This document shows, piece after piece, positions 11,260-24,863 of a DNA stretch of 26,655 nucleotides; within the stretch, counting starts at the first letter, position 1, and each line of letters begins with the position of its first letter. Source of the stretch: an archaeon. GTDB taxonomy: Archaea > Undinarchaeota > Undinarchaeia > Undinarchaeales > Naiadarchaeaceae. The stretch is taken from assembly GCA_037442905.1 (NCBI GenBank), contig JBBIPJ010000001.1:1-26655 (forward strand). Direction: 5' to 3'. Under the pieces are notes generated by a model. The model saw only the letters and a list, made by a program, of their open reading frames with translations, was not told the origin of the DNA and did no database searches. The translations under genes were made by a program, and so were the position numbers.

Positions 11260-11420
11260 GAGAATGCTTCGTAAGTAAACTTACTCGCACACAAAGGAAT
11301 AAAATTCCTTCACAAAGGGTAGCTTCAATTGGTCAAGTACTTCACTTGATAAGCAACTACCCTTTGTGTTTGCGCACACGAAACCGGAGGTTTCGTGTTG
11401 TCTCTCACTTCGTTCGAGAT
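11260..11420. repeat. Cluster of REP-like hairpins including a 58-bp palindromic element
   Basis: Nested hairpin 11260-11289; AAGGAAT-AAA-ATTCCTT; CACAAAGGGTAG...CTACCCTTTGTG (11311-11368); ACACGAAACC-GGA-GGTTTCGTGT (11376-11398); TCTC-TCACTTCGTTC-GAGA (11401-11419). Confidence 0.8.
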
Positions 11421-12351
11421 GACAAATCCAATAACAGCATCCGCTCCGGCCAAACTCATTTTGTTTGGGGAGCACATTGTTGTCTATGGAGAGCCTGCAA
11501 TAGCAACTGCTCTTGATAAGCGAGCATATGTAACAGCAATCACTCTAGATGAGAAAAAAATTGTTGTGCGCTCAAAAAATTTGGGAAACGAGATTGAAGC
11601 CTCTTTTAAGGAGCAAACAAAAGATCCTGTAGTAAGAGCTGCTCAAGTTGCACTTGAAAAAACAAAGGCAAACAAAGGAGTTCAAGTAGAAATAAATTCC
11701 GAGATTCCTGTTTCTGTTGGTTTGGGGAGCAGTGCATCAGTTTCAGTTGCAACAGCAGCTGCTATCTTAAAACTTTTTTCTGAAAAAGAGCCATCAAAAT
11801 TTGAAATTATGGCAGTGGCCCATGAGGCTGAAAAAATTGCTCATGGAAATCCAAGCGGAATTGATACTGCAATTACAACCTTTGGCGGCACAATATTTTT
11901 TAAAAAAGGCGAGATTGAAAGCTTGGGCGCTCCCCAAATGGAAATAGTAGTTGGAAATACAAAAGTTCCAAGAAACACAAAAGAAATTGTTGAAAATGTA
12001 AAAAAAATTATTGAAGACCCGCGAGTTGCTTACAATCTTTTTACAATAAGCTCAATAGTTAGAAGAGCGCGCGAAGCCTTATTGCGCTCAAATCTTACAG
12101 AAATCGGGCATTTGATGAATAAAAACCAAGAGTTTTTAAGGGCGCTTGGAGTAAGCTCTGTAGAATTGGAGCAATTAATCCAGGTTGCACAGCAGGCAGG
12201 TGCATACGGAGCTAAATTAACAGGTGCTGGCGGTGGAGGATGCATGATAGCTTTGACAGACAGTCCTGAAAAAATTCAGGATGTTCTAAATAAAAGGGGG
12301 GCAGAGGCATTTGTTGTAAAAACAAATCAGGCTGGAGTAAGATATGAGTAA
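11419..12351 (+). CDS. mvk: Mevalonate kinase
   Basis: SAPAKLILFGEHIVVYG, IPVSVGLGSSAS, HGNPSGID, GAKLTGAGGGG. Confidence 0.95.
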   Translation: MTNPITASAPAKLILFGEHIVVYGEPAIATALDKRAYVTAITLDEKKIVVRSKNLGNEIEASFKEQTKDPVVRAAQVALEKTKANKGVQVEINSEIPVSVGLGSSASVSVATAAAILKLFSEKEPSKFEIMAVAHEAEKIAHGNPSGIDTAITTFGGTIFFKKGEIESLGAPQMEIVVGNTKVPRNTKEIVENVKKIIEDPRVAYNLFTISSIVRRAREALLRSNLTEIGHLMNKNQEFLRALGVSSVELEQLIQVAQQAGAYGAKLTGAGGGGCMIALTDSPEKIQDVLNKRGAEAFVVKTNQAGVRYE

Positions 12352-14194: not shown

Positions 14195-15061
14195 ATGGGT
14201 ATAAAAAAAATTTCTTTATCTGAAAAATTGAAAATTTTAATTGAAATAAGCCGCCCTGTAAACATTTTAATGGTTATTTTTGGAATTATTATTACACTTG
14301 TTGCCGGGCTTGAAAGTATCCCACCTTTAGGGCTTTTGCTTCCAGCGGTTATCGCTGCTGCGTCAATCGCAGCTGCCGGAAATGCTATAAACGATTACTA
14401 TGACATTCAAATCGATCGAATTAATCGCCCTGAGCGCCCATTGCCTTCTGGAAAAATAACACAGCGCGGAATCTGGGGATATGCTATTTTTTTGTTCGCA
14501 ACTGGAATAATTGTTTCTATATTGCTGACACTTGCAAACTTTGTTCTTGCTTTTGTAAATTCTGTTCTTCTAGGAATTTATGCCTATAGATTAAAGCGAA
14601 GCGGATTTTTTGGAGATATTGTAATAAGTTATTTAGTGGCATCTGTCTTTATTTTCGCGGCGCTTGCAATCCATTCTCTGAAAATAGGATTTATTCTTGC
14701 AGTAGCAGCATTTTTCACAAATTCTGCGCGCGAAGTTCTGAAAGATTTGGAAGATATAAAAGGGGATAAACTCTTTGGAGCAAGAACTTTGCCACTTTTA
14801 ATTGGAAGAAAAAAATCAATCATAATTGTCAGCTCTTTTTTAATAGTTTCAATTTTAGTTAGCCCACTTCCATTTACGCTTGGAATTTTAAAATGGCCAT
14901 ATCTTGCTGTTGCAGCTCTCGCTGATTTTATTTTTCTTGACATAATTTATCTGCTCAATAAAAAAACTGACAAAAAAACTATTGCGCTGAATCAGAGGCT
15001 GATAAAATTTGCTGCCCTGACCGGCTTGCTCGCCTTTTTGGCTGGTGTGCTTCCTGTCTGA
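14195..15061 (+). CDS. Digeranylgeranylglyceryl phosphate synthase (UbiA family)
   Basis: NAINDYYDIQIDRINRPERPLPSG, AREVLKDLEDIKGD, multi-pass membrane protein, lipid-cluster context. Confidence 0.88.
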   Translation: MGIKKISLSEKLKILIEISRPVNILMVIFGIIITLVAGLESIPPLGLLLPAVIAAASIAAAGNAINDYYDIQIDRINRPERPLPSGKITQRGIWGYAIFLFATGIIVSILLTLANFVLAFVNSVLLGIYAYRLKRSGFFGDIVISYLVASVFIFAALAIHSLKIGFILAVAAFFTNSAREVLKDLEDIKGDKLFGARTLPLLIGRKKSIIIVSSFLIVSILVSPLPFTLGILKWPYLAVAALADFIFLDIIYLLNKKTDKKTIALNQRLIKFAALTGLLAFLAGVLPV

Positions 15062-15070
15062 GCATAAAAC

Positions 15071-15078
15071 TTTATAAG
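15071..15078 (+). promoter_or_regulatory. TATA box upstream of the duplicated egsA start
   Basis: AAAAC-TTTATAAG just after the DGGGP synthase stop. Confidence 0.5.
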
Positions 15079-15105
15079 AGGCTTGCACAGATACTTTCTG
15101 CTTTC

Positions 15106-15331
15106 AATAGGCCTAGAAAAATGACTGCAAGAAAAATTGAATCCCCACAGCCGACGACATGAACGTTTATCCGACTTTGAATCGGCTGGCGCTTCGGACT
15201 ACATCACAAAGGGTAGGTTTATTAGCTAACCACTTTGATAGCTATCCAGCCTACCCTTTGTGTAGGGGCATTCTCGCTGCGCTCGAAGCCCCTAAATAGG
15301 CATAGAAAAATGACTGCAAGAAAAATTGAAT
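15106..15331 (+). repeat. 37-bp direct repeat (15106-15142 and 15295-15331) flanking a 152-bp hairpin cassette
   Basis: AATAGGC(C/A)TAGAAAAATGACTGCAAGAAAAATTGAAT, 36/37 identical. It contains the egsA start and first 7 codons; the first copy gives the mini-ORF MTARKIESPQPTT* (15121-15162). Confidence 0.92.
15143..15294. mobile_element. Putative non-autonomous hairpin cassette (REP/MITE-like)
   Basis: CAGCCGA/TCGGCTG stem (15147-15188), 58-bp palindrome (15205-15262), GTAGGGGC...GCCCCTA hairpin (15262-15294), flanked by the 37-bp duplication. Confidence 0.55.
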
Positions 15332-16356
15332 TTCCAAGAATAGTAATTGTTGGCAGCGGAGCCACTGAGCAGATTGTTGAAGTAGTTGATGAAATAAGCC
15401 CTGGAAAAAATGCCTTAATTACCTCAGGCCCGCAAACCATGCAAATAGCTGGAAATAAAGTAAAGAAATTGCTTGAAAAATCTGGGTACAAAGTTTTCCA
15501 CCAGCGTTCCGAGGTTGCGGATGAAAAAACAATTTCTGCAGCCCAGAATCAGATAAAGCAGCACAAAATTAACATTGCTCTTGGAGTTGGGGGTGGAACA
15601 AGTATTGATGTTGCAAAGCTCTCCTCGTCTAGAGAAAATGTTCCATTCATTTCTGTTCCAACAGCTGCTTCGCATGATGGAATTTCCAGCCCAATTGCAT
15701 CAATAAAGCAGGATGGAAGTTTTAAAAGCTATCCTGCAACTGCGCCAATTGCAATTGTTGCAGATGTCTCAATAATTAAAACAGCTCCAAGAAAAATGTT
15801 AGCAGCTGGATGTGGAGATTTGCTTGCAAATTATACTGCAGTTGAGGATTGGAGACTTGCACACAAGTTAAGAGGGGAATATTTCGGAGAATATGCAGCC
15901 GCTCTTTCAATTATGAGCGCAAAAATGATTCTGGATAATTATGAAATTTTAAAAAATCCAAATGAGGAATCCATTAAATTAGTTGTTGAAGCATTGATTA
16001 GTTCAGGAGCAGCTATGTGCATTACAGGAAACTCTCGCCCGTGCAGCGGGGCAGAGCATATGTTTTCTCATGCTCTTGATAAATTGACTCCGAATCATGG
16101 ATTGCATGGAGAGCAATGTGGAATTGGAACAGTTATGATGGCATATTTGCATAAATTAGACTGGGAAAAATTCCGCGATGCTTTAAAAGCTGTTGGCGCC
16201 CCAACTAATGCTTCTGAATTAGGAATTGATTCAGAATTAATAATAAAAGCACTTACAATAGCGCACACAATCAGGGATAGGTATACAATTTTAGGAACAA
16301 ACGGATTGAGCGAAGAGGCAGCAAGAGATTTGGCAAGGAAAACAGGGGTTATATAA
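15310..16356 (+). CDS. egsA: Glycerol-1-phosphate dehydrogenase [NAD(P)+]
   Basis: GVGGGTSIDVAK, SVPTAASHDGISSP, AGCGDLLAN, SRPCSGAEHMFSHALD, LHGEQCG. Confidence 0.96.
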   Translation: MTARKIEFPRIVIVGSGATEQIVEVVDEISPGKNALITSGPQTMQIAGNKVKKLLEKSGYKVFHQRSEVADEKTISAAQNQIKQHKINIALGVGGGTSIDVAKLSSSRENVPFISVPTAASHDGISSPIASIKQDGSFKSYPATAPIAIVADVSIIKTAPRKMLAAGCGDLLANYTAVEDWRLAHKLRGEYFGEYAAALSIMSAKMILDNYEILKNPNEESIKLVVEALISSGAAMCITGNSRPCSGAEHMFSHALDKLTPNHGLHGEQCGIGTVMMAYLHKLDWEKFRDALKAVGAPTNASELGIDSELIIKALTIAHTIRDRYTILGTNGLSEEAARDLARKTGVI

Positions 16357-17172: not shown

Positions 17173-17856
17173 ATGAAACTTGGCGCACTTTTTTCAGGCG
17201 GAAAGGACAGCACATTTGCTCTATACTGGGCGATAAAAAACAATCACTCGATAGAATGTTTGATTTCTCTCAAAGCAGCGCGCACAGATTCTTATATGTT
17301 TCAGGTTGCGAATATTGAACTAACAAAATTAAGCGCTCAGGCTTTAGGATTGCCAATTATTTTTGAAAAAACCTCCGGAATTAAAGAAAAAGAATTGGAT
17401 GATTTAAAACGCGCAATTTTGCGCGCAAAAAAAGAATTTGGAATCGAAGGAGTAACTGCAGGCGCGCTTGCTTCTAATTATCAAAAGGAAAGGGTTGAAA
17501 AAATTTGCAAAGAACTTGGGCTGAAAGTTTTCGCACCCTATTGGCAATACAACCAGGAAAAATATCTGCGCGAAATTTTGGAAGCAGGATTTGAAATAAT
17601 TTTTACAAGAGTTGCTGCACTTGGGTTTACTGAAAAATGGCTTGGAAGAAAATTGGATGAAAAAGCAATTGAGGATTTAAAAAAATTAAATCAAAAATAT
17701 CACGTTCACTTAGGAGGAGAGGGCGGCGAATTTGAGACTTTAGTTCTGGAGGGGCCGATTTTTAAAAAGCGGATAGAAATTTTAGAGGCTGAAAAAGTTT
17801 TTCATGCGAATGAGGGGGAGCTTTTAATTAAAAGTGCTGTGCTTGTTGAAAAATAA
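17173..17856 (+). CDS. dph6: Diphthine--ammonia ligase
   Basis: LFSGGKDS PP-loop, SYMFQ, GALASNYQKERVE, HLGGEGGEFET. Confidence 0.9.
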   Translation: MKLGALFSGGKDSTFALYWAIKNNHSIECLISLKAARTDSYMFQVANIELTKLSAQALGLPIIFEKTSGIKEKELDDLKRAILRAKKEFGIEGVTAGALASNYQKERVEKICKELGLKVFAPYWQYNQEKYLREILEAGFEIIFTRVAALGFTEKWLGRKLDEKAIEDLKKLNQKYHVHLGGEGGEFETLVLEGPIFKKRIEILEAEKVFHANEGELLIKSAVLVEK

Positions 17857-18075
17857 TTACTCTTGCTTTTCAAAGCTAATACTTTTTACTCTCCCATTTT
17901 CTAATTCAAATTTTGCTAAAATTCTGTCGGTTAAGTTTTGTTTAGGGCTAAAAGTTTTTGAACATTTTCCACAATCCAAATCTGACTCAAGTTCGACAGC
18001 ATACCAACTTGATTCAGCAAAATAATTTTTACAATAAGGGCATTTTACAATTGCAATATCAAGATTGGCTTCCAT
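17857..18075 (-). CDS. Small zinc-ribbon protein
   Basis: 72 aa with CPYC and CGKC; its start abuts the stop of the upstream ORF. Confidence 0.7.
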   Translation of the reverse strand: MEANLDIAIVKCPYCKNYFAESSWYAVELESDLDCGKCSKTFSPKQNLTDRILAKFELENGRVKSISFEKQE

Positions 18076-18578
18076 TATTCTAATATTTCTCTTCTTCTTT
18101 CAGCATATGCTACGCTTAATTCCCTATAAAGAGCATCGGCTCTTCTTGCGATGCTCAAGAATTTATCTTTTAGTACCTCGTTTTGCATCATTTCAGCTAT
18201 TATATAATGTGTGCATCTGCATTCATCATGTATTTCTAATAATCTCTCAACCAACAGCATAAAAAAGTTTAAAACTCTGATTATTGCTTTGCTGTCCTCT
18301 GGCATTTCAAATCTCCTTAGCGGATCTTTTAGCTCATTTTTCCAATTTGCCATAAAAGTAAGATAGAGATCGTATATTCTTGCTTCTAATTCCATTACTC
18401 TTCTGATTTCTCTAGCTCTCTCTTCAGCAGGCTGTTCCCTCAAAAATTCGCGAATCTCAAACGGAATATACCACAAGCTAGTTTTGTGCACACTCAATTC
18501 CACTTCCAAGGGACTAGTGCCCTGCTTTAATATATCCAAATCAGCCCATAATTCTTCTAATTTCTTTTTCTTTGGCAT
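18075..18578 (-). CDS. Hypothetical helical protein
   Basis: 167 aa ORF with protein-like composition, coupled to the zinc-ribbon gene; no motif recognised. Confidence 0.65.
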   Translation of the reverse strand: MPKKKKLEELWADLDILKQGTSPLEVELSVHKTSLWYIPFEIREFLREQPAEERAREIRRVMELEARIYDLYLTFMANWKNELKDPLRRFEMPEDSKAIIRVLNFFMLLVERLLEIHDECRCTHYIIAEMMQNEVLKDKFLSIARRADALYRELSVAYAERRREILE

Positions 18579-18636
18579 ATACTGTAATTTGTTGTTTAGT
18601 AAATATATATGTCTGTGGTTTTAAGAAAAAATAATT

Positions 18637-18656
18637 AAATAGTAGATATACTATTT
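18637..18656. promoter_or_regulatory. Inverted repeat, possible operator between divergent orphan genes
   Basis: AAATAGTA-GATA-TACTATTT, ending 2 nt before ATG 18659. Confidence 0.35.
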
Positions 18657-18658
18657 TT

Positions 18659-19162
18659 ATGCAAATGCCTATCAAAATTAAATATAATAAGAGCAATTTA
18701 AAAACAATTTTGCATTCAAATAACCGTGTAACAGAACTGCCAGCAAACCCAGATTCTTTCTTAAAAGAGTTTTTAGAAAAAGTTAGCAGAGGCGAGTATG
18801 TTGAAGCAGTGAACATGTTTTTTGAACTCAGGCTTGCGCAATTCGCAAAAATTTTTAAAGAGCTGAACACTAAAAAACCTGAAATTGGCAGAATTTATCA
18901 GGAAATGGCCATTATACGCGGAACAATGCTTATTGACAGGTTAAAGTCACTGATGACTAAAAACTGGGATGCTGAATCTACTGCAAATTACAGAAATTTT
19001 ATCCGTGCCTATAATGAATTTAAGGAAGCTGAAAATAAAGAGGACCGCAGGGCGGCAATTCATGGCTTTATCAGCCCAGTCTCATGGTTTATTGGGCGAA
19101 TTATAAAAGAGAAAAAGCAAATTCCAGAACACGAATTTACAATTGAGATAGAAGAAGACTGA
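18659..19162 (+). CDS. Hypothetical protein
   Basis: 167 aa helical ORF; no motif recognised. Confidence 0.65.
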   Translation: MQMPIKIKYNKSNLKTILHSNNRVTELPANPDSFLKEFLEKVSRGEYVEAVNMFFELRLAQFAKIFKELNTKKPEIGRIYQEMAIIRGTMLIDRLKSLMTKNWDAESTANYRNFIRAYNEFKEAENKEDRRAAIHGFISPVSWFIGRIIKEKKQIPEHEFTIEIEED

Positions 19163-19169
19163 GGTTTGC

Positions 19170-20494: not shown

Positions 20495-20638
20495 ATTAGT
20501 GGCGGTTTAATTGAACCAATCGGTTTATAAGGATTTGGAGCTACATATAACTCTTCAAGGCTGGCAAAAACAAAAGTAGAAATTAAAGGGGTTCTAGGAT
20601 AAAATTCAAGGATGAACCCCCTGATAAGTGCCAGCTGG

Positions 20639-20696
20639 CACAATGTGAAGGTTTGTTAGCTAACCAATTGGATAGCAATGCAGCCTTCACATTGTG
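20639..20696. repeat. 58-bp palindromic element, third copy
   Basis: CACAATGTGAAGG...CCTTCACATTGTG; 47/58 identical to 15205-15262. Confidence 0.85.
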
Positions 20697-20726
20697 ATTA
20701 TACCTCGCTTAAGCGGAGGTCAGCTG

Positions 20727-21773
20727 ATGAAAGCCCATCTAGCTATTTGTCCCATAGGCGTTTTTGTCTGTGATGACACTGGAAAATTAATAGACAAGGA
20801 ACTTTTTGAAAGGAATAGTGAGCATGCTGCGCGCAGGATTTTGCAATTGCGAGATGGAAAAATCATTCCTGAATTAAAAGTTTTATATGAACGGATTAGA
20901 AAAAAATATGATGAAATTACCCTAGAGCATGAAAATAATTTTGGTTTAAGTATTGAAACTTCAATTCCAAATTTATGCGGAAAAGTTTTGCGCGCGCAAA
21001 TTAAGGATTTAGCTGCAGAATTTGGATTTCATCCGATTGAACATTTTGTTTATAATTTGGGAATTGCTTTAACAGAAGAAACCCTGCAGGTTGAACTTTC
21101 AAAGCCTGACAAAAGAATTATTCAAGTGATTGGTGCGCTTGAGGAGCTGGATAAGAATACAAATGTTCTTTCAGAGAGGTTAAGAGAGTGGTATCTAATT
21201 TTTCACCCAGAATTAATTAGTCAGATTGAGAAACATGAAACTTTTGCGCGCCTGATTGCAAAGGGAAAAGTGGATAAAAAAGATTCAATCGGCGCAAGTT
21301 TTAATGAAACCGATTTAAAAACCTTAAGATTTTTTGCAGAAAACATTTCTGACTCTTTTTCATTGCGCAGTGTTTTGGAAAATTATCTGGATAATTTAAT
21401 GAAAGAGCATTTTCCAAATTTGCGCACAGTTGCAACTCCGCTGATAGGAGCAAAATTAATTGCAATTGCAGGCGATTCAACAAGATTGGCAAGAATGCCC
21501 TCTTCTACAATTCAAGTTTTAGGAGCTGAAAAATCTTTGTTCAGGCATTTGAAAACAGGCTCAAAGCCGCCGAAGTATGGAGTTATATTAAAACACACAT
21601 TTTTGCAGAGCGCGCCCCAAAGGTTGCGCGGAAAAGTTGCGCGCGCGCTTGCGGCAAAAATTTCGCTTGCAATTAAAACAGATTTGTATTCAAAAGAATT
21701 TGTTGGGGATAAATTGAGAAAGGATTTAGAAAGTAAAATTGCAAAAATAAAGGGTGGTGGGAAGAAAAAATGA
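20727..21773 (+). CDS. nop5: C/D box RNP protein Nop5 (Nop56/58)
   Basis: LSERLREWY, PNLRTV...IGAKLIAIAG, STIQVLGAEKSLFRHL...PPKYGVI, RGKVARALAAKISLA; GGAGGT RBS at 20715-20720. Confidence 0.95.
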   Translation: MKAHLAICPIGVFVCDDTGKLIDKELFERNSEHAARRILQLRDGKIIPELKVLYERIRKKYDEITLEHENNFGLSIETSIPNLCGKVLRAQIKDLAAEFGFHPIEHFVYNLGIALTEETLQVELSKPDKRIIQVIGALEELDKNTNVLSERLREWYLIFHPELISQIEKHETFARLIAKGKVDKKDSIGASFNETDLKTLRFFAENISDSFSLRSVLENYLDNLMKEHFPNLRTVATPLIGAKLIAIAGDSTRLARMPSSTIQVLGAEKSLFRHLKTGSKPPKYGVILKHTFLQSAPQRLRGKVARALAAKISLAIKTDLYSKEFVGDKLRKDLESKIAKIKGGGKKK

Positions 21774-22324
21774 AAATGAAGAAGATTTTAAAAGTAAAAA
21801 GTAAAAAAGATATCGAAAAGCAAATCAAAGAATTAAGAAATCGAGGTAAAAAACTTGCTGAAATTTCAAAAATAACTGGAAAAAGTATTCATTATGTTTA
21901 TTCGAGACTAAATCCCAAATATAGACTGGGGCGATTAGAAATACATTACATTAATGAAAAGGTTATCCCCACACTTAAAAGAATGGGGTTTAAAGATATT
22001 TATATCCCAGATGATCCAAGACAAAATAGAAAAAAGAAGTTTTGGGCTGATATTGTTGCAAAAAAAGGTAAGACATTTCATATTTTTGAAGTCAAACATA
22101 GGCCACAGAGATCTTTGTTTTGTTTTGCGGTAGGGGAAATTATCCTAAATAGATGCGTGAATAATAAGATAAATGGTAAGAAAAAATACCATATTGTTCT
22201 ACCCCATCCCACCTCTTATATTGATGTTTTCACCAAAAAAGTAGAATGGGCGAGTATGAAAAATTTCAAAGAAGAAGCAAAATTCCTAAAAAAGAATTAT
22301 GGCGTAGATGTTATTTTCATTTGA
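21770..22324 (+). CDS. HTH + PD-(D/E)xK nuclease-like protein inserted between nop5 and flpA
   Basis: N-terminal HTH (GKKLAEISKITGKSIHYVYSRL), then E...LKRMGF...ADIVAKKGKTFHIFEVK. The alternative start is 21776. Confidence 0.7.
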   Translation: MKMKKILKVKSKKDIEKQIKELRNRGKKLAEISKITGKSIHYVYSRLNPKYRLGRLEIHYINEKVIPTLKRMGFKDIYIPDDPRQNRKKKFWADIVAKKGKTFHIFEVKHRPQRSLFCFAVGEIILNRCVNNKINGKKKYHIVLPHPTSYIDVFTKKVEWASMKNFKEEAKFLKKNYGVDVIFI

Positions 22325-22327
22325 AAA

Positions 22328-22984
22328 ATGAAGAACTTTTCTAATATTCAGCAATTCGGCCGCGATTTCGGGACTTTGAATCTTAATCCCGGGAAGAAGG
22401 TTTATGGAGAGCGTTTAGTCCAGCATTCTGGAAAAGAGTATAGAATCTGGGACATTTACAGGAGCAAAATTGCTGCTGCGATTTATCAGGGATTGCAGAA
22501 TTTTCCATTTAAGGAAAATACAAAAATTCTTTATCTCGGCGCAGGAAATGGGACAACAGTTTCGCATTTCTCGGATGTCTGCACTAATGGGCAGATTTTC
22601 TCTGTTGAATTCTCAGCGCGCGCAATGACAGATTTATTTTTGCTTTCAAAACAGCGTGAAAATATTATTCCTTTATTAGCAGATGCAAACAAGCCACAGG
22701 ATTATCTTTCTATTGTGCCGGAAGTGGATGTAATTTATCAGGATATTGCGCAGAGAGATCAGGTTGATATTTTAAATAAAAATGTGGATATTTTTTTGAA
22801 AGACAAAGGATATATTTTTTTAATGGTAAAGGCGCGCTCAATTGATGTTGCAATGGAGCCGAAAAATGTTTTCAAGGTTGTGTATGCGCAGTTGCAGAAC
22901 AAATACAAAATTCTTGAGCAGCTACGGCTGGATCCATATGAAAAGGACCATATGTGCATTGTGGCACAAAAACTTAATAAATAA
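22328..22984 (+). CDS. flpA: Fibrillarin-like rRNA/tRNA 2'-O-methyltransferase
   Basis: VYGERL...YRIWDIYRSKIAA, LYLGAGNGTTVSHFSD, SVEFS, DVIYQDIAQRDQ, LDPYEKDH. Confidence 0.96.
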   Translation: MKNFSNIQQFGRDFGTLNLNPGKKVYGERLVQHSGKEYRIWDIYRSKIAAAIYQGLQNFPFKENTKILYLGAGNGTTVSHFSDVCTNGQIFSVEFSARAMTDLFLLSKQRENIIPLLADANKPQDYLSIVPEVDVIYQDIAQRDQVDILNKNVDIFLKDKGYIFLMVKARSIDVAMEPKNVFKVVYAQLQNKYKILEQLRLDPYEKDHMCIVAQKLNK

Positions 22985-24064: not shown

Positions 24065-24718
24065 ATGAGAGAAGGGCTGAAAATTTTAAAATATAAAAAA
24101 CGGGTTGAATTAAAAAGCGGGCACGATACTTTTTCAGTTTATGACCCTGCAAAAATTTTTGTAAATGGCTATTGGGATTATATGGGAGTTTTTCCCGAGT
24201 TAAATAATGCAAAAAATATTTTGCTGCTTGGAATTGGCTGCGGCACTATATCAAGAATAATTTTAAATTTTTTTCCAGATGTAAAAATTGATGGAGTGGA
24301 TAATGATTCTGATATTATAGAAACAGCCAAGAAATATTTCGCGCTTGAAAAACAAAATGTAAATGTTTTTATAAAAGATGCTCAGGAATTTCTGGAAAAT
24401 TCTAAAAGCAACTATGACTTGATTTTGCTTGATACTTTTGTGGAGCTTGATATCCCAATGCATTTAACTACTGATAGCTTTTTTAAAATGGTGAAATCCC
24501 ACTTAATTGAAAAAGGAATTTTTTGCATAAATGTTGCAAAAAGCGAGTTCGCAGAAGAAGTTGCAGCATCGCTTGCTGAAGTTTTTCAGAATGTTTATCT
24601 GCTAACAGCTTTTAACACATTGAATACGGAAATTGTTGCGTCTGATTCTGAGCTGGATTTTGAGAGGCTAAAAAAATTTTCAGGGCTGGGGGAGTTTGAG
24701 GCGAAAAAATTGATATAG
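24065..24718 (+). CDS. Spermidine-synthase-like class I SAM-dependent methyltransferase
   Basis: ILLLGIGCGT, DGVDND, DAQEFL, YDLILLDTF, GIFCIN. Confidence 0.75.
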   Translation: MREGLKILKYKKRVELKSGHDTFSVYDPAKIFVNGYWDYMGVFPELNNAKNILLLGIGCGTISRIILNFFPDVKIDGVDNDSDIIETAKKYFALEKQNVNVFIKDAQEFLENSKSNYDLILLDTFVELDIPMHLTTDSFFKMVKSHLIEKGIFCINVAKSEFAEEVAASLAEVFQNVYLLTAFNTLNTEIVASDSELDFERLKKFSGLGEFEAKKLI

Positions 24719-24719
24719 T

Positions 24720-24731
24720 AAACCTTATATA
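24720..24731 (+). promoter_or_regulatory. Putative BRE/TATA promoter of the thermosome gene
   Basis: AAACCTTATATA immediately after the methyltransferase stop; AAGGAG RBS at 24853-24858. Confidence 0.5.
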
Positions 24732-24766
24732 GTACCTCTAGCAGATTAAATTCCACTTCTAATAAA

Positions 24767-24838
24767 TTAAGTAGCGAGTATCGAGATTCGAGAAAAGAGT
24801 CCCGCATCCCCAGTCCCTAATCCCCAATCCCCCAACCA
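24767..24838. repeat. Degenerate 7-bp periodic array in the thermosome leader
   Basis: gcgagta tcgagat tcgagaa aa gagtccc gcatccc cagtccc taatccc caatccc. Confidence 0.8.
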
Positions 24839-24863
24839 TATTCACAAATTTCAAGGAGATAAA

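Follow-up and report, generated by a model that had tools for sequence, protein, structure and literature searches.

Insertion with long and variable target duplication was described by Nobusato et al. (2000) and extended by Furuta, Abe and Kobayashi (2010; PMC2853133) for restriction-modification genes, found by comparing Helicobacter, Haemophilus, Neisseria and other bacteria. The repeats flanking these insertions measure 46 to ~420 bp and often lie over gene ends, no mobility gene is found nearby, and the cycle proposed for them consists of amplification via the repeats followed by release; no archaeal case passed the screen for such duplications (PMC2853133). Here we analyse a 26,655-nt stretch (contig JBBIPJ010000001.1, hereafter the window) from a DPANN archaeon, in which a cassette of hairpins lies at the start of egsA, the gene for glycerol-1-phosphate dehydrogenase, between two copies of the beginning of that gene. 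The egsA locus is one instance of genome-wide insertions at gene boundaries, flanked by repeats of 0–66 bp, that leave both neighbours intact. The reading that we favour, with about even confidence, is that the locus is an insertion with long, variable target duplication, produced by recombination and involving tiny non-coding elements in an archaeon.

The genome of this window (G000) comprises 783 kb in 138 contigs, with 37% G+C and 79% completeness, and NCBI labels its order-level relatives Undinarchaeales. All 52 contigs of its closest relative, a 98% complete genome of the same genus (G001), were compared with it, and at egsA use was also made of L100, a contig from another sample and lineage, the egsA of which shows 78% amino acid and 69% nucleotide identity and belongs to another egsA clade. 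Contig numbers with the prefix C are those of G000 unless G001 is named. The egsA insert is a composite of a ~110-nt, two-hairpin element, designated E, that was later split by a 58-bp palindrome. The features of the locus are:

15106–15142, + strand: repeat copy A, with 12 nt of element tail (15106–15117, assigned from the family alignment), 3 nt of leader, and the ATG plus 7 1/3 egsA codons.
15121–15162, + strand: upstream open reading frame (uORF) of 13 codons, MTARKIESPQPTT and stop, ATG at 15121 and TGA at 15160–15162, read from the sequence.
15143–15204, + strand: 5′ part of E, with hairpin 1 (CAGCCG...CGGCTG) and linker GGCGCTTCGGACTACAT; copies 85–94% identical on G000 C10, C80, C78 and C41 and on G001 C25, C44, C41 and C7.
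15205–15262, + strand: nested 58-bp palindromic repeat, between ...GGACTACAT and TAGGGGC..., without duplication; absent from the E of L100 and from every other E copy.
15263–15306, + strand: 3′ part of E, with hairpin 2 (TAGGGGC...GCCCCTA, 15263–15294) and tail AATAGGCATAGA (15295–15306), from the nine-copy E alignment.
15295–15331, + strand: repeat copy B, with element tail, leader and start of the intact gene.
15310–16356, + strand: egsA, intact, 348 aa, ATG at 15310; Pfam Fe-ADH_2, 2.4e-36.
15071–15078, + strand: TATA-like box TTTATAAG, the presumed egsA promoter.
14195–15061, + strand: gene for a UbiA-family prenyltransferase (DGGGP synthase-like), the upstream neighbour; Pfam UbiA, 9.2e-41; stop codon at 15059–15061.

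The direct repeat (15106–15142 and 15295–15331) spans 37 nt and is identical at 36 of them (mismatch 15113/15302), with a start-to-start spacing of 189 nt. Even when up to three mismatches are allowed, the window contains the 37-mer nowhere but at these positions, no match arose in 100 shuffles, and no further copy exists across the 783-kb genome. The intervening 152 nt form three strong hairpins (−70.4 kcal/mol for RNA over 15090–15340, z = −3.9), and the G+C content of the cassette is ~0.46–0.47 vs mostly 0.32–0.44 in the surrounding genes (200-nt windows). These coordinates confirm the initial annotation, which had reported a 36/37 repeat around 152 bp whose first copy yields a 13-aa uORF and whose second starts the intact egsA; the uORF, with its ATG at 15121, also lies downstream of the TATA box at 15071–15078, as had been stated. 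The uORF begins with the authentic egsA initiation region and its stop codon sits in the loop of hairpin 1. An open reading frame finder stretches egsA to a TTG at 15235, within the cassette, and relatives show that ATG 15310 is the real start, which calls for caution in the annotation of start codons. The product of egsA is 88% identical to its G001 orthologue over the full length (81% for nucleotides), and an exact-protein look-up found no identical record.

The egsA site of G001 is collinear with ours on both sides (79–81% identity) and contains, in order, a TATA equivalent (CTTTATAAAT) at the matching place, ...TTTTAATA, AAAATG and the gene, in single copy and with no insert. The alignments of the two flanks of the egsA cassette share on G001 a stretch as long as the repeat. 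The sites of P0002, P0004, P0006, P0007 and P0008 are also empty, with UbiA-egsA spacers of 21–72 nt. Empty alleles therefore exist in the closest relative and in further lineages, and the proposal of an insertion whose duplication keeps egsA whole holds with respect to G001. The order UbiA-egsA is kept in all relatives examined; in the window the two genes belong to a lipid cluster that includes an FMN-dependent isomerase-like gene, UbiA, egsA and PcrB. The egsA leader of L098:832–1000 (P0003 lineage, egsA 84% identical in amino acids) holds another element, in which TAGC-rich heptamers form a palindromic array, and the UbiA-egsA spacer has been occupied independently in at least three lineages.

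All nine copies in the alignment of the E family (the egsA copy, four others in G000, three in G001 and one in L100) share the same order of blocks: hairpin 1, linker GGCGCTTCGGACTACAT, hairpin 2 and tail AAATAGGCCTAG. The stem of hairpin 2 covaries among them (GGGGC/GCCCC, GGGAC/GTCCC, GGCAC/GTGCC, GGGAT/ATCCC), and the tail pairs with GGACTA of the linker in their consensus fold. In L100 and the other E copies, ...GGACTACAT runs straight into hairpin 2, which has a G-rich beginning (TAGGGGC in L100 and TGGGGGC or similar in the others); since this joint is uninterrupted in all of them, the palindrome must have entered E cleanly and in this lineage only. The 58-bp palindrome belongs to a family with more copies than E, found at 20639–20696, at 11311–11368 and on many contigs, and showing compensatory changes in the stem. 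E with this sequence occurs only in this genus among 13 searched genomes of the order, and is a reverse-orientation relative of the far more abundant S family (GGCACCTCAGGG..., hairpin, ...GCGCCAGCTGATCATACCTC, hairpin, CGGCTG), a copy on C53 linking E and S. The S end motif is present in ~20 copies in G000 vs one in G001; this abundance in one genome and near absence from the other indicate that the expansion of S postdates their split. The repeat family with the highest copy number (up to ~46 self-matches) consists of heptamer arrays bounded by TTGAAATTTGTG and CACAAATTTCAA (for instance C20:1444–1540, C31:5454–5596 and C62:3680–3825), which usually stop a few bases 5′ of a start codon and have flanking overlaps of 0–5 bp.

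Several E copies abut tRNA genes. At C10:4970–5232 a tRNA-Ser(TGA) is predicted with a 129-nt intron that holds dispersed-repeat sequence, and E starts 1–2 nt past the tRNA 3′ end, an arrangement equal to that on G001 C25. Comparison with Rfam gave no match at the gathering score, and relaxed E-values returned only meaningless microRNA or ribozyme matches. Scans of collections of genome contigs and of metagenome contigs for the uORF-element junction pattern found only chance matches of ~20 nt in bacteria. The identification of E as an H/ACA or C/D-box small RNA was dropped on inspection by eye, the boxes being misplaced.

The insertions were surveyed through chained alignments of G000 and G001, counting indels of 25–700 nt, and 50 indels were filled in G000 and empty in G001 vs 10 in the reverse direction, with 70 further sites occupied by different material in both genomes. 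Most of the G000-specific inserts are cassettes of dispersed repeats, 39–250 nt long and without an open reading frame of any size; in a self-comparison of G000 such repeats cover 298 regions and 26.7 kb, or 3.4% of the genome, many of them at contig ends. The duplicated length, estimated as the overlap of both flank alignments on the empty G001 site, was 0–5 nt in about thirty events, took intermediate values in others (6, 8, 10, 11, 13, 13, 14, 17 and 20 nt), and reached 27, 30, 30, 33, 36, 36, 44 and 54 nt in the rest, the two largest being tandem arrays. The initial annotation had singled out the egsA site as the best evidence that hairpin modules move; these 50 presence/absence differences, together with the clean entry of the nested palindrome, are stronger.

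Other cassettes in G000 do have long flanking duplications, of 10–66 bp, 9–10 of them with clean empty sites in G001. About 15 G000-specific loci carry flanking repeats of this size over start or stop codons (37, 36, 31, 30, 29, 27, 26, 20, 17 and 10 bp, and up to 63–66 bp), and clean single-copy G001 sites were read for C19, C84, C2, C14, C72, C60, C4 and C3. A search for close direct repeats in G000 found on C27 a layout like that of egsA, with a 26/26 repeat that covers the start codon and eight codons; C17 has a 62/63 repeat over the leader and 16 codons, C14 a 30/31 repeat and C19 a 20/20 repeat, and at C38:2049–2219 an exact 66/66 repeat, formed by a tRNA 3′ end and downstream sequence, surrounds a single 39-nt hairpin. 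In G001 the gene matching that of C27 carries, between its promoter and its ATG, another insert, ~60 nt long and including a small hairpin (G001 C37:30806–30867), so that the leader of this gene is occupied by different elements in the two genomes. The duplicated segments nearly always include a start codon, or else a stop codon overlapping either the following promoter or the end of a convergent gene, and in start-type events the joint beside the working gene copy lies mostly at 0 to about −10 of the ATG. Long repeats accompany mainly the S/E superfamily, with duplications of 0–2, 5–6, 10, 20, 27, 29, 30, 31, 36 and 37 bp; for heptamer arrays and 58-bp palindromes they are 0–5 bp. Gene start or gene end plus cassette also form tandem arrays of two or three copies, at C111:1745–2071 (142-bp unit, 117/117 identical), C102:2627–3000, C86:1115–1481 (which holds a run of N) and C14:4579–5337.

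Two further cassettes of the window illustrate insertions at start codons:

20538–20726, + strand: S-family cassette with a 58-bp palindrome in the leader of nop5; its end ...GATTATACC...GGAGGTCAGCTG abuts ATG 20727, and G001 has only 22 nt here.
11267–11418, + strand: 152-nt cassette directly after a start codon, with a 3-nt duplication of the ATG (11264–11266 and 11419–11421); empty in G001.

The end of the nop5 cassette places a TATA-like GATTATACC ~30 nt and a GGAGGT 6 nt before the nop5 ATG. A general role of the S end (GATTATACC plus GGAGGT) as a mobile promoter and ribosome-binding module was considered and rejected, because it abuts a start codon in only ~4–5 of ~22 copies. The cassette at 11267–11418 parts a GGGAG ribosome-binding-like motif from the working ATG 11419. 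The window also contains larger G000-specific insertions at 17834–19168 (~1.3 kb, three small open reading frames), at 21768–22336 (569 nt, between nop5 and the fibrillarin gene) and at 24074–24859 (786 nt, before the thermosome gene), where G001 has 51–68 nt.

A one-step account of the egsA locus, along the lines of the initial annotation, is that the whole 152-bp cassette was inserted once and recently, at a break with 37-nt staggered ends or through template switching, with fill-in producing a true 37-bp target-site duplication. The 36/37 identity of the repeats, the empty site of the closest relative, the construction of the cassette from dispersed repeats and the exact repeats of 20–66 bp at other young cassettes all agree with it. 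Nevertheless, the 37-nt repeat opens with 12 nt (AATAGGCCTAGA) that belong to E itself, as its conserved 3′ tail, found in all nine aligned copies, and in copy A this tail stands upstream of the leader where G001 has only AATA, the extra 8 bases being GGCCTAGA. Of the 37-nt repeat, therefore, only ~29 nt (AATA, leader and first codons) exist in the empty site and 8 nt come from the element tail. Because a staggered cut of the target cannot copy part of the incoming element, a simple one-step target duplication is insufficient and a second step is needed. Moreover, the cassette is not one unit, the 58-bp palindrome being a separate nested insertion, and matching junctions with diverged repeats are found in the distant L100, so that we consider this account unlikely. 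The proposal of an insertion that copies its target thus stands as regards an insertion with a gene-sparing duplication, and is not borne out in its simple form, the repeat not being pure target.

In L100, E is inserted in egsA at matching junctions, with GAAT/CCCCAC on the left and the tail AAATAGGCC before the leader on the right, and has no palindrome. The L100 repeats have diverged (~16/22 identical in the coding part) and the uORF has 12 codons (MIPRKIESPQPH and stop). In the egsA tree the window sequence groups with the empty G001-like sequence (95/92), and L100 falls in the other clade, beside the empty P0006 and P0008; the two filled lineages are therefore in different egsA clades, each with empty sisters. 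No L100-like tract was detected in the egsA or UbiA of G000, identity to G001 being highest in every 120-nt window, and the egsA E is 90–94% identical to other E copies of its own genus, with loops that cannot be aligned to those of the L100 E. Three histories remain: one old origin followed by at least four precise losses between repeats and by concerted evolution of E and the repeats; re-entry of a small block, consisting of E and the gene start, by homologous pairing; or two site-specific insertions. The insertion had been called recent, which fits the near-identical repeats and the nested 58-bp palindrome and is not clearly true of the E-in-egsA arrangement, as L100 shares its junctions.

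Where the flanking repeats have diverged, their differences are mostly silent. Over seven such loci we counted ~28 synonymous vs 8 non-synonymous codon differences between copies (C102 read by eye). At C72:2378–2614 and C67:1126–1260 the duplicated 3′ ends of genes encode the same or nearly the same peptide with 11/36 bases different, almost all synonymously; both C72 copies encode AGKKSRGLRK and a stop, with eight synonymous codon differences, and the gene-start copies compared at C102 differ at synonymous sites only. The distance between copies about equals that separating each of them from its counterpart in G001, although the S family postdates the split. Since decay in place of a redundant copy should give the reverse ratio, and the distances are those of orthologues, the second copy resembles the end of a gene from a different lineage. 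We considered as explanations recombination with foreign alleles, anchored by homology on one side and joined illegitimately on the other, or integration of a block of cassette and gene end that had been released; contigs that switch between related species within a shared cassette; and selection on both copies. The left and right flanks of these loci are equally similar to G001 (75–84%; genome mean 78%), with no sign of chimerism.

A more trivial explanation of the egsA locus is that a mis-join through repeated modules created the apparent duplication during assembly. The depth of the data, ~4–6x, is low, and the metagenome-assembled genome (MAG) is in 138 contigs, many of which end in these repeats. 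A single public run, probably from the source sample, contains the stretch, with 99% of its sampled 31-mers, and both junction sequences must be present in the reads. One contig of this run, built separately, spans 15284–15532 without difference and so includes 11 nt of cassette, copy B and egsA; it carries the copy-B-specific base at the joint between cassette and copy B, which by itself is weak evidence on the artefact question. No contig of the run aligned over 14300–15142, leaving the left junction uncovered in an alignment made with contigs only, and no empty-site joint was seen among them. The longest exact stretch common to copies A and B is 29 nt, less than k = 31. A stronger argument is that the matching architecture was assembled independently in L100, from another sample and another lineage, and about a dozen analogous loci of G000 have clean empty sites in G001. 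We thus regard an artefact as extremely improbable.

The genomes were also examined for enzymes that might insert the elements. No DDE_Tnp_1 (PF01609) was found in G000, G001 and G002, a search that covered this DDE family only and a G000 that is 79% complete; neither did these three genomes yield a Y1/RAYT transposase (PF01797; G001 is 98% complete) or a reverse transcriptase (PF00078). A tyrosine recombinase is represented only by a 108-aa fragment on C59 of G000, with no match in G001. G000 does encode Cas1 (C53:3566–4570, − strand, 293 bits), with no match in G001 or G002. This gene belongs to a type V-like CRISPR-Cas operon (C53:117–4570, − strand) that contains Cas1, an adjacent 100-aa ORF that is a candidate Cas2, an ORF of 193 aa, a Cas12/TnpB-like gene of 539 aa (1060–2679) and a 224-aa ORF; a simple scan for spaced repeats detected no CRISPR array in G000 or G001.

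It is conceivable from these genes that an enzyme acting in trans, either the type V Cas1 of C53 (with Cas2), in an off-target or casposase-like reaction, or a tyrosine recombinase, integrates the hairpin elements by strand transfers tens of bases apart. Cas1 integration duplicates tens of bases, the length being fixed in CRISPR adaptation and in casposons; the size range of CRISPR repeats includes 26–37 bp, and casposons and integrases prefer tRNA 3′ ends. Many of the repeats in G000 measure 26–37 bp, tRNA genes lie directly beside E copies, a site preference would agree with the identical junctions in two lineages, and the genome that alone has Cas1 and the Cas12-like gene shows five times more lineage-specific insertions. 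But repeat lengths run continuously from 0 to 66 bp within one family, as if no fixed ruler were used, and the repeats have no common core; structured inserts of 39–250 nt are unlike prespacers, no array was seen in the simple scan, the sole integrase match is a fragment, and Cas1 would leave the orthologue-like divergence of repeat copies unexplained. An enzyme of this kind therefore seems very unlikely.

We return to the reading of the locus as a recombinational insertion with long, variable target duplication. The elements would be inserted by recombination without an element-specific transposase, and selection, in a genome that has hardly any intergenic DNA to spare, would remove the events that do not rebuild gene ends. 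At egsA, the arrangement of E between two gene starts would be older than its near-identical repeats suggest, or would have been re-acquired. E and a gene-start copy may behave as a block that is amplified in tandem, deleted between repeats, and able to re-enter by homologous pairing; if such a block can multiply, disappear and return by way of its repeats, the present 36/37 identity at egsA would be secondary. The egsA copies could later have been made alike by a tandem duplication after which the first element body was deleted between two AATA, or by repair of a break in copy A from copy B, and either route would account for the element tail in copy A. A wider version, that in DPANN archaea small hairpin elements and a copy of the adjoining gene terminus move together as one block, which is released or amplified via its flanking repeats and re-enters empty alleles, including those of other species, through homologous pairing of the terminus copy and with no element-encoded enzyme, strikes us as possible but rather doubtful; if true, it would explain the identical egsA junctions in distant lineages, the patchy distribution, the tandem arrays and the orthologue-like copies.

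Several points weigh against this recombinational reading. We infer the route of recombination, no intermediate having been seen among the sequences examined, and a single origin requires at least four precise losses on the egsA tree. The lack of any L100-like tract in egsA or UbiA means that a transfer would have moved only a small unit, and the closeness of the egsA E to copies of its own genus fits independent insertion as well as it fits concerted evolution. The synonymous pattern could partly reflect contigs that switch between species, given that species equidistant from G001 would also produce equal flanks. The support at the locus comes from contigs, not raw or long reads, and the interior of the cassette, built of modules repeated across the genome, could be mis-resolved. 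Finally, the transposase negatives cover few families in an incomplete G000, which does carry Cas1 and the tyrosine-recombinase fragment.

The transcript of egsA would be expected to start ~25 nt past the TATA box at 15071 and to contain the 13-codon uORF, which would be translated, ~150 nt of hairpins and a second, identical initiation region at the real start. This leader might be a selected device that regulates egsA by translation-coupled attenuation or control of reinitiation, exapted from a repeat element, an idea compatible with the other readings and for which a uORF in both filled lineages (13 and 12 codons), with RKIESPQP identical in both despite three synonymous differences, the location of the uORF stop codon within hairpin 1 and the persistence of the arrangement in two clades could be adduced. 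However, SPQP is encoded by the conserved stem of the element and conversion from the main copy could preserve RKIE; five of the seven relatives examined lack the arrangement and a sixth has a different element in its egsA leader, the uORF being absent from all six; single-sequence folds showed no alternative pairing; and the matching architecture occurs at many unrelated genes. We therefore judge a selected regulatory role improbable. Programmed ribosome hopping between the repeats was also considered, and was rejected because it leaves the duplicated stop-codon ends unexplained.

The genomes of these archaea are among the smallest and most gene-dense, yet in this one hairpin repeats make up 3.4% of the sequence, with dozens of lineage-specific insertions at gene boundaries and even in an essential lipid gene. 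Because long variable duplications rebuild gene ends, the host can survive a build-up of non-coding DNA, new 5′ leaders and uORFs. Duplications of this sort were so far known only for bacterial restriction-modification genes, and the combination here of many young events with empty sites in a sister genome makes the mechanism testable. The many contigs that end in these repeats also account for the poor assembly of such MAGs.

The elements of G000 can be compared with other described repeats. To our knowledge, repetitive extragenic palindromic (REP) sequences have not been reported with long flanking duplications or inside coding starts. The likeness to REP, BIME and REPIN sequences (PMC2817692; PMC3184786) resides in abundant short palindromic units arranged in mosaic intergenic cassettes, and the nested 58-bp palindrome, but only that palindrome, is REP-like in entering without target duplication and in keeping compensatory pairing in its stems. 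Unlike the REP/RAYT system, the three genomes searched have no Y1 transposase.

Correia/NEMIS, ERIC, BOX and the Rickettsia palindromic elements (RPEs) are small, non-autonomous, structured elements, located near or in genes, co-transcribed with them and sometimes modular. MITEs (miniature inverted-repeat transposable elements) possess terminal inverted repeats and generate a short target duplication of fixed length. The elements described here resemble these MITE-like repeats (reviewed in PMC3184786 and PMC10969869) in being small and structured and in lying beside or inside genes, but are not MITEs, because the two ends of E (CCCCACAGCCG... and ...AAATAGGCCTAG) show no inverted repetition of each other and the duplications are variable. 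Whereas ribosomes read through RPEs in frame, translation that begins in the first copy here ends inside the element.

The attL and attR sites of tyrosine-recombinase elements offer another parallel, as a duplicated gene terminus keeps the gene whole, the copy brought by the element may differ as an orthologue does, and a tRNA 3′ end is among the duplicated targets (C38). But there is no integrase in the inserts, which are 40–250 nt long, the genome has only the fragment, and no core is common to the loci. Integration by Cas1, at the CRISPR repeat or in casposons (PMC4046053), is similar in duplicating tens of bases through two spaced strand transfers, and Cas1 is present in G000 and not in G001 or G002; the duplication length is fixed there and ranges here over 0–66 bp.

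Homology-facilitated illegitimate recombination (PMC3240628) and the formation of merodiploids in transformation (PMC3784515) require, as we propose here, no recombinase specific to the insert. In both, foreign DNA can be added and sequence of the recipient duplicated when one side is anchored by homology and the other is joined illegitimately, and either could explain the orthologue-like repeat copies. Both routes have been shown only in bacteria, in the laboratory, and for these archaea they are suggested by sequence patterns.

The closest likeness is to the insertions with long and variable target duplication. As in that class, the insert is absent from a collinear relative, repeats of tens of bases align to the single copy of the empty site, their length varies by locus (here 0–66 bp), often over gene ends, and the insert has no mobility gene. 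The egsA locus itself has 37-nt repeats and the corresponding overlap of flanks on G001, but only ~29 nt of them are in the empty site. The cargo of the class consists of kb-sized restriction-modification genes, mostly in competent bacteria, whereas here it is non-coding hairpin repeats of 40–250 nt, in an archaeon and at dozens of loci; also unlike that class, the repeats go down to 0–10 bp and are centred on start or stop codons. The feature is thus real, and rather unusual within what is apparently an undescribed archaeal variant of a kind of insertion that is known but whose mechanism is unexplained.

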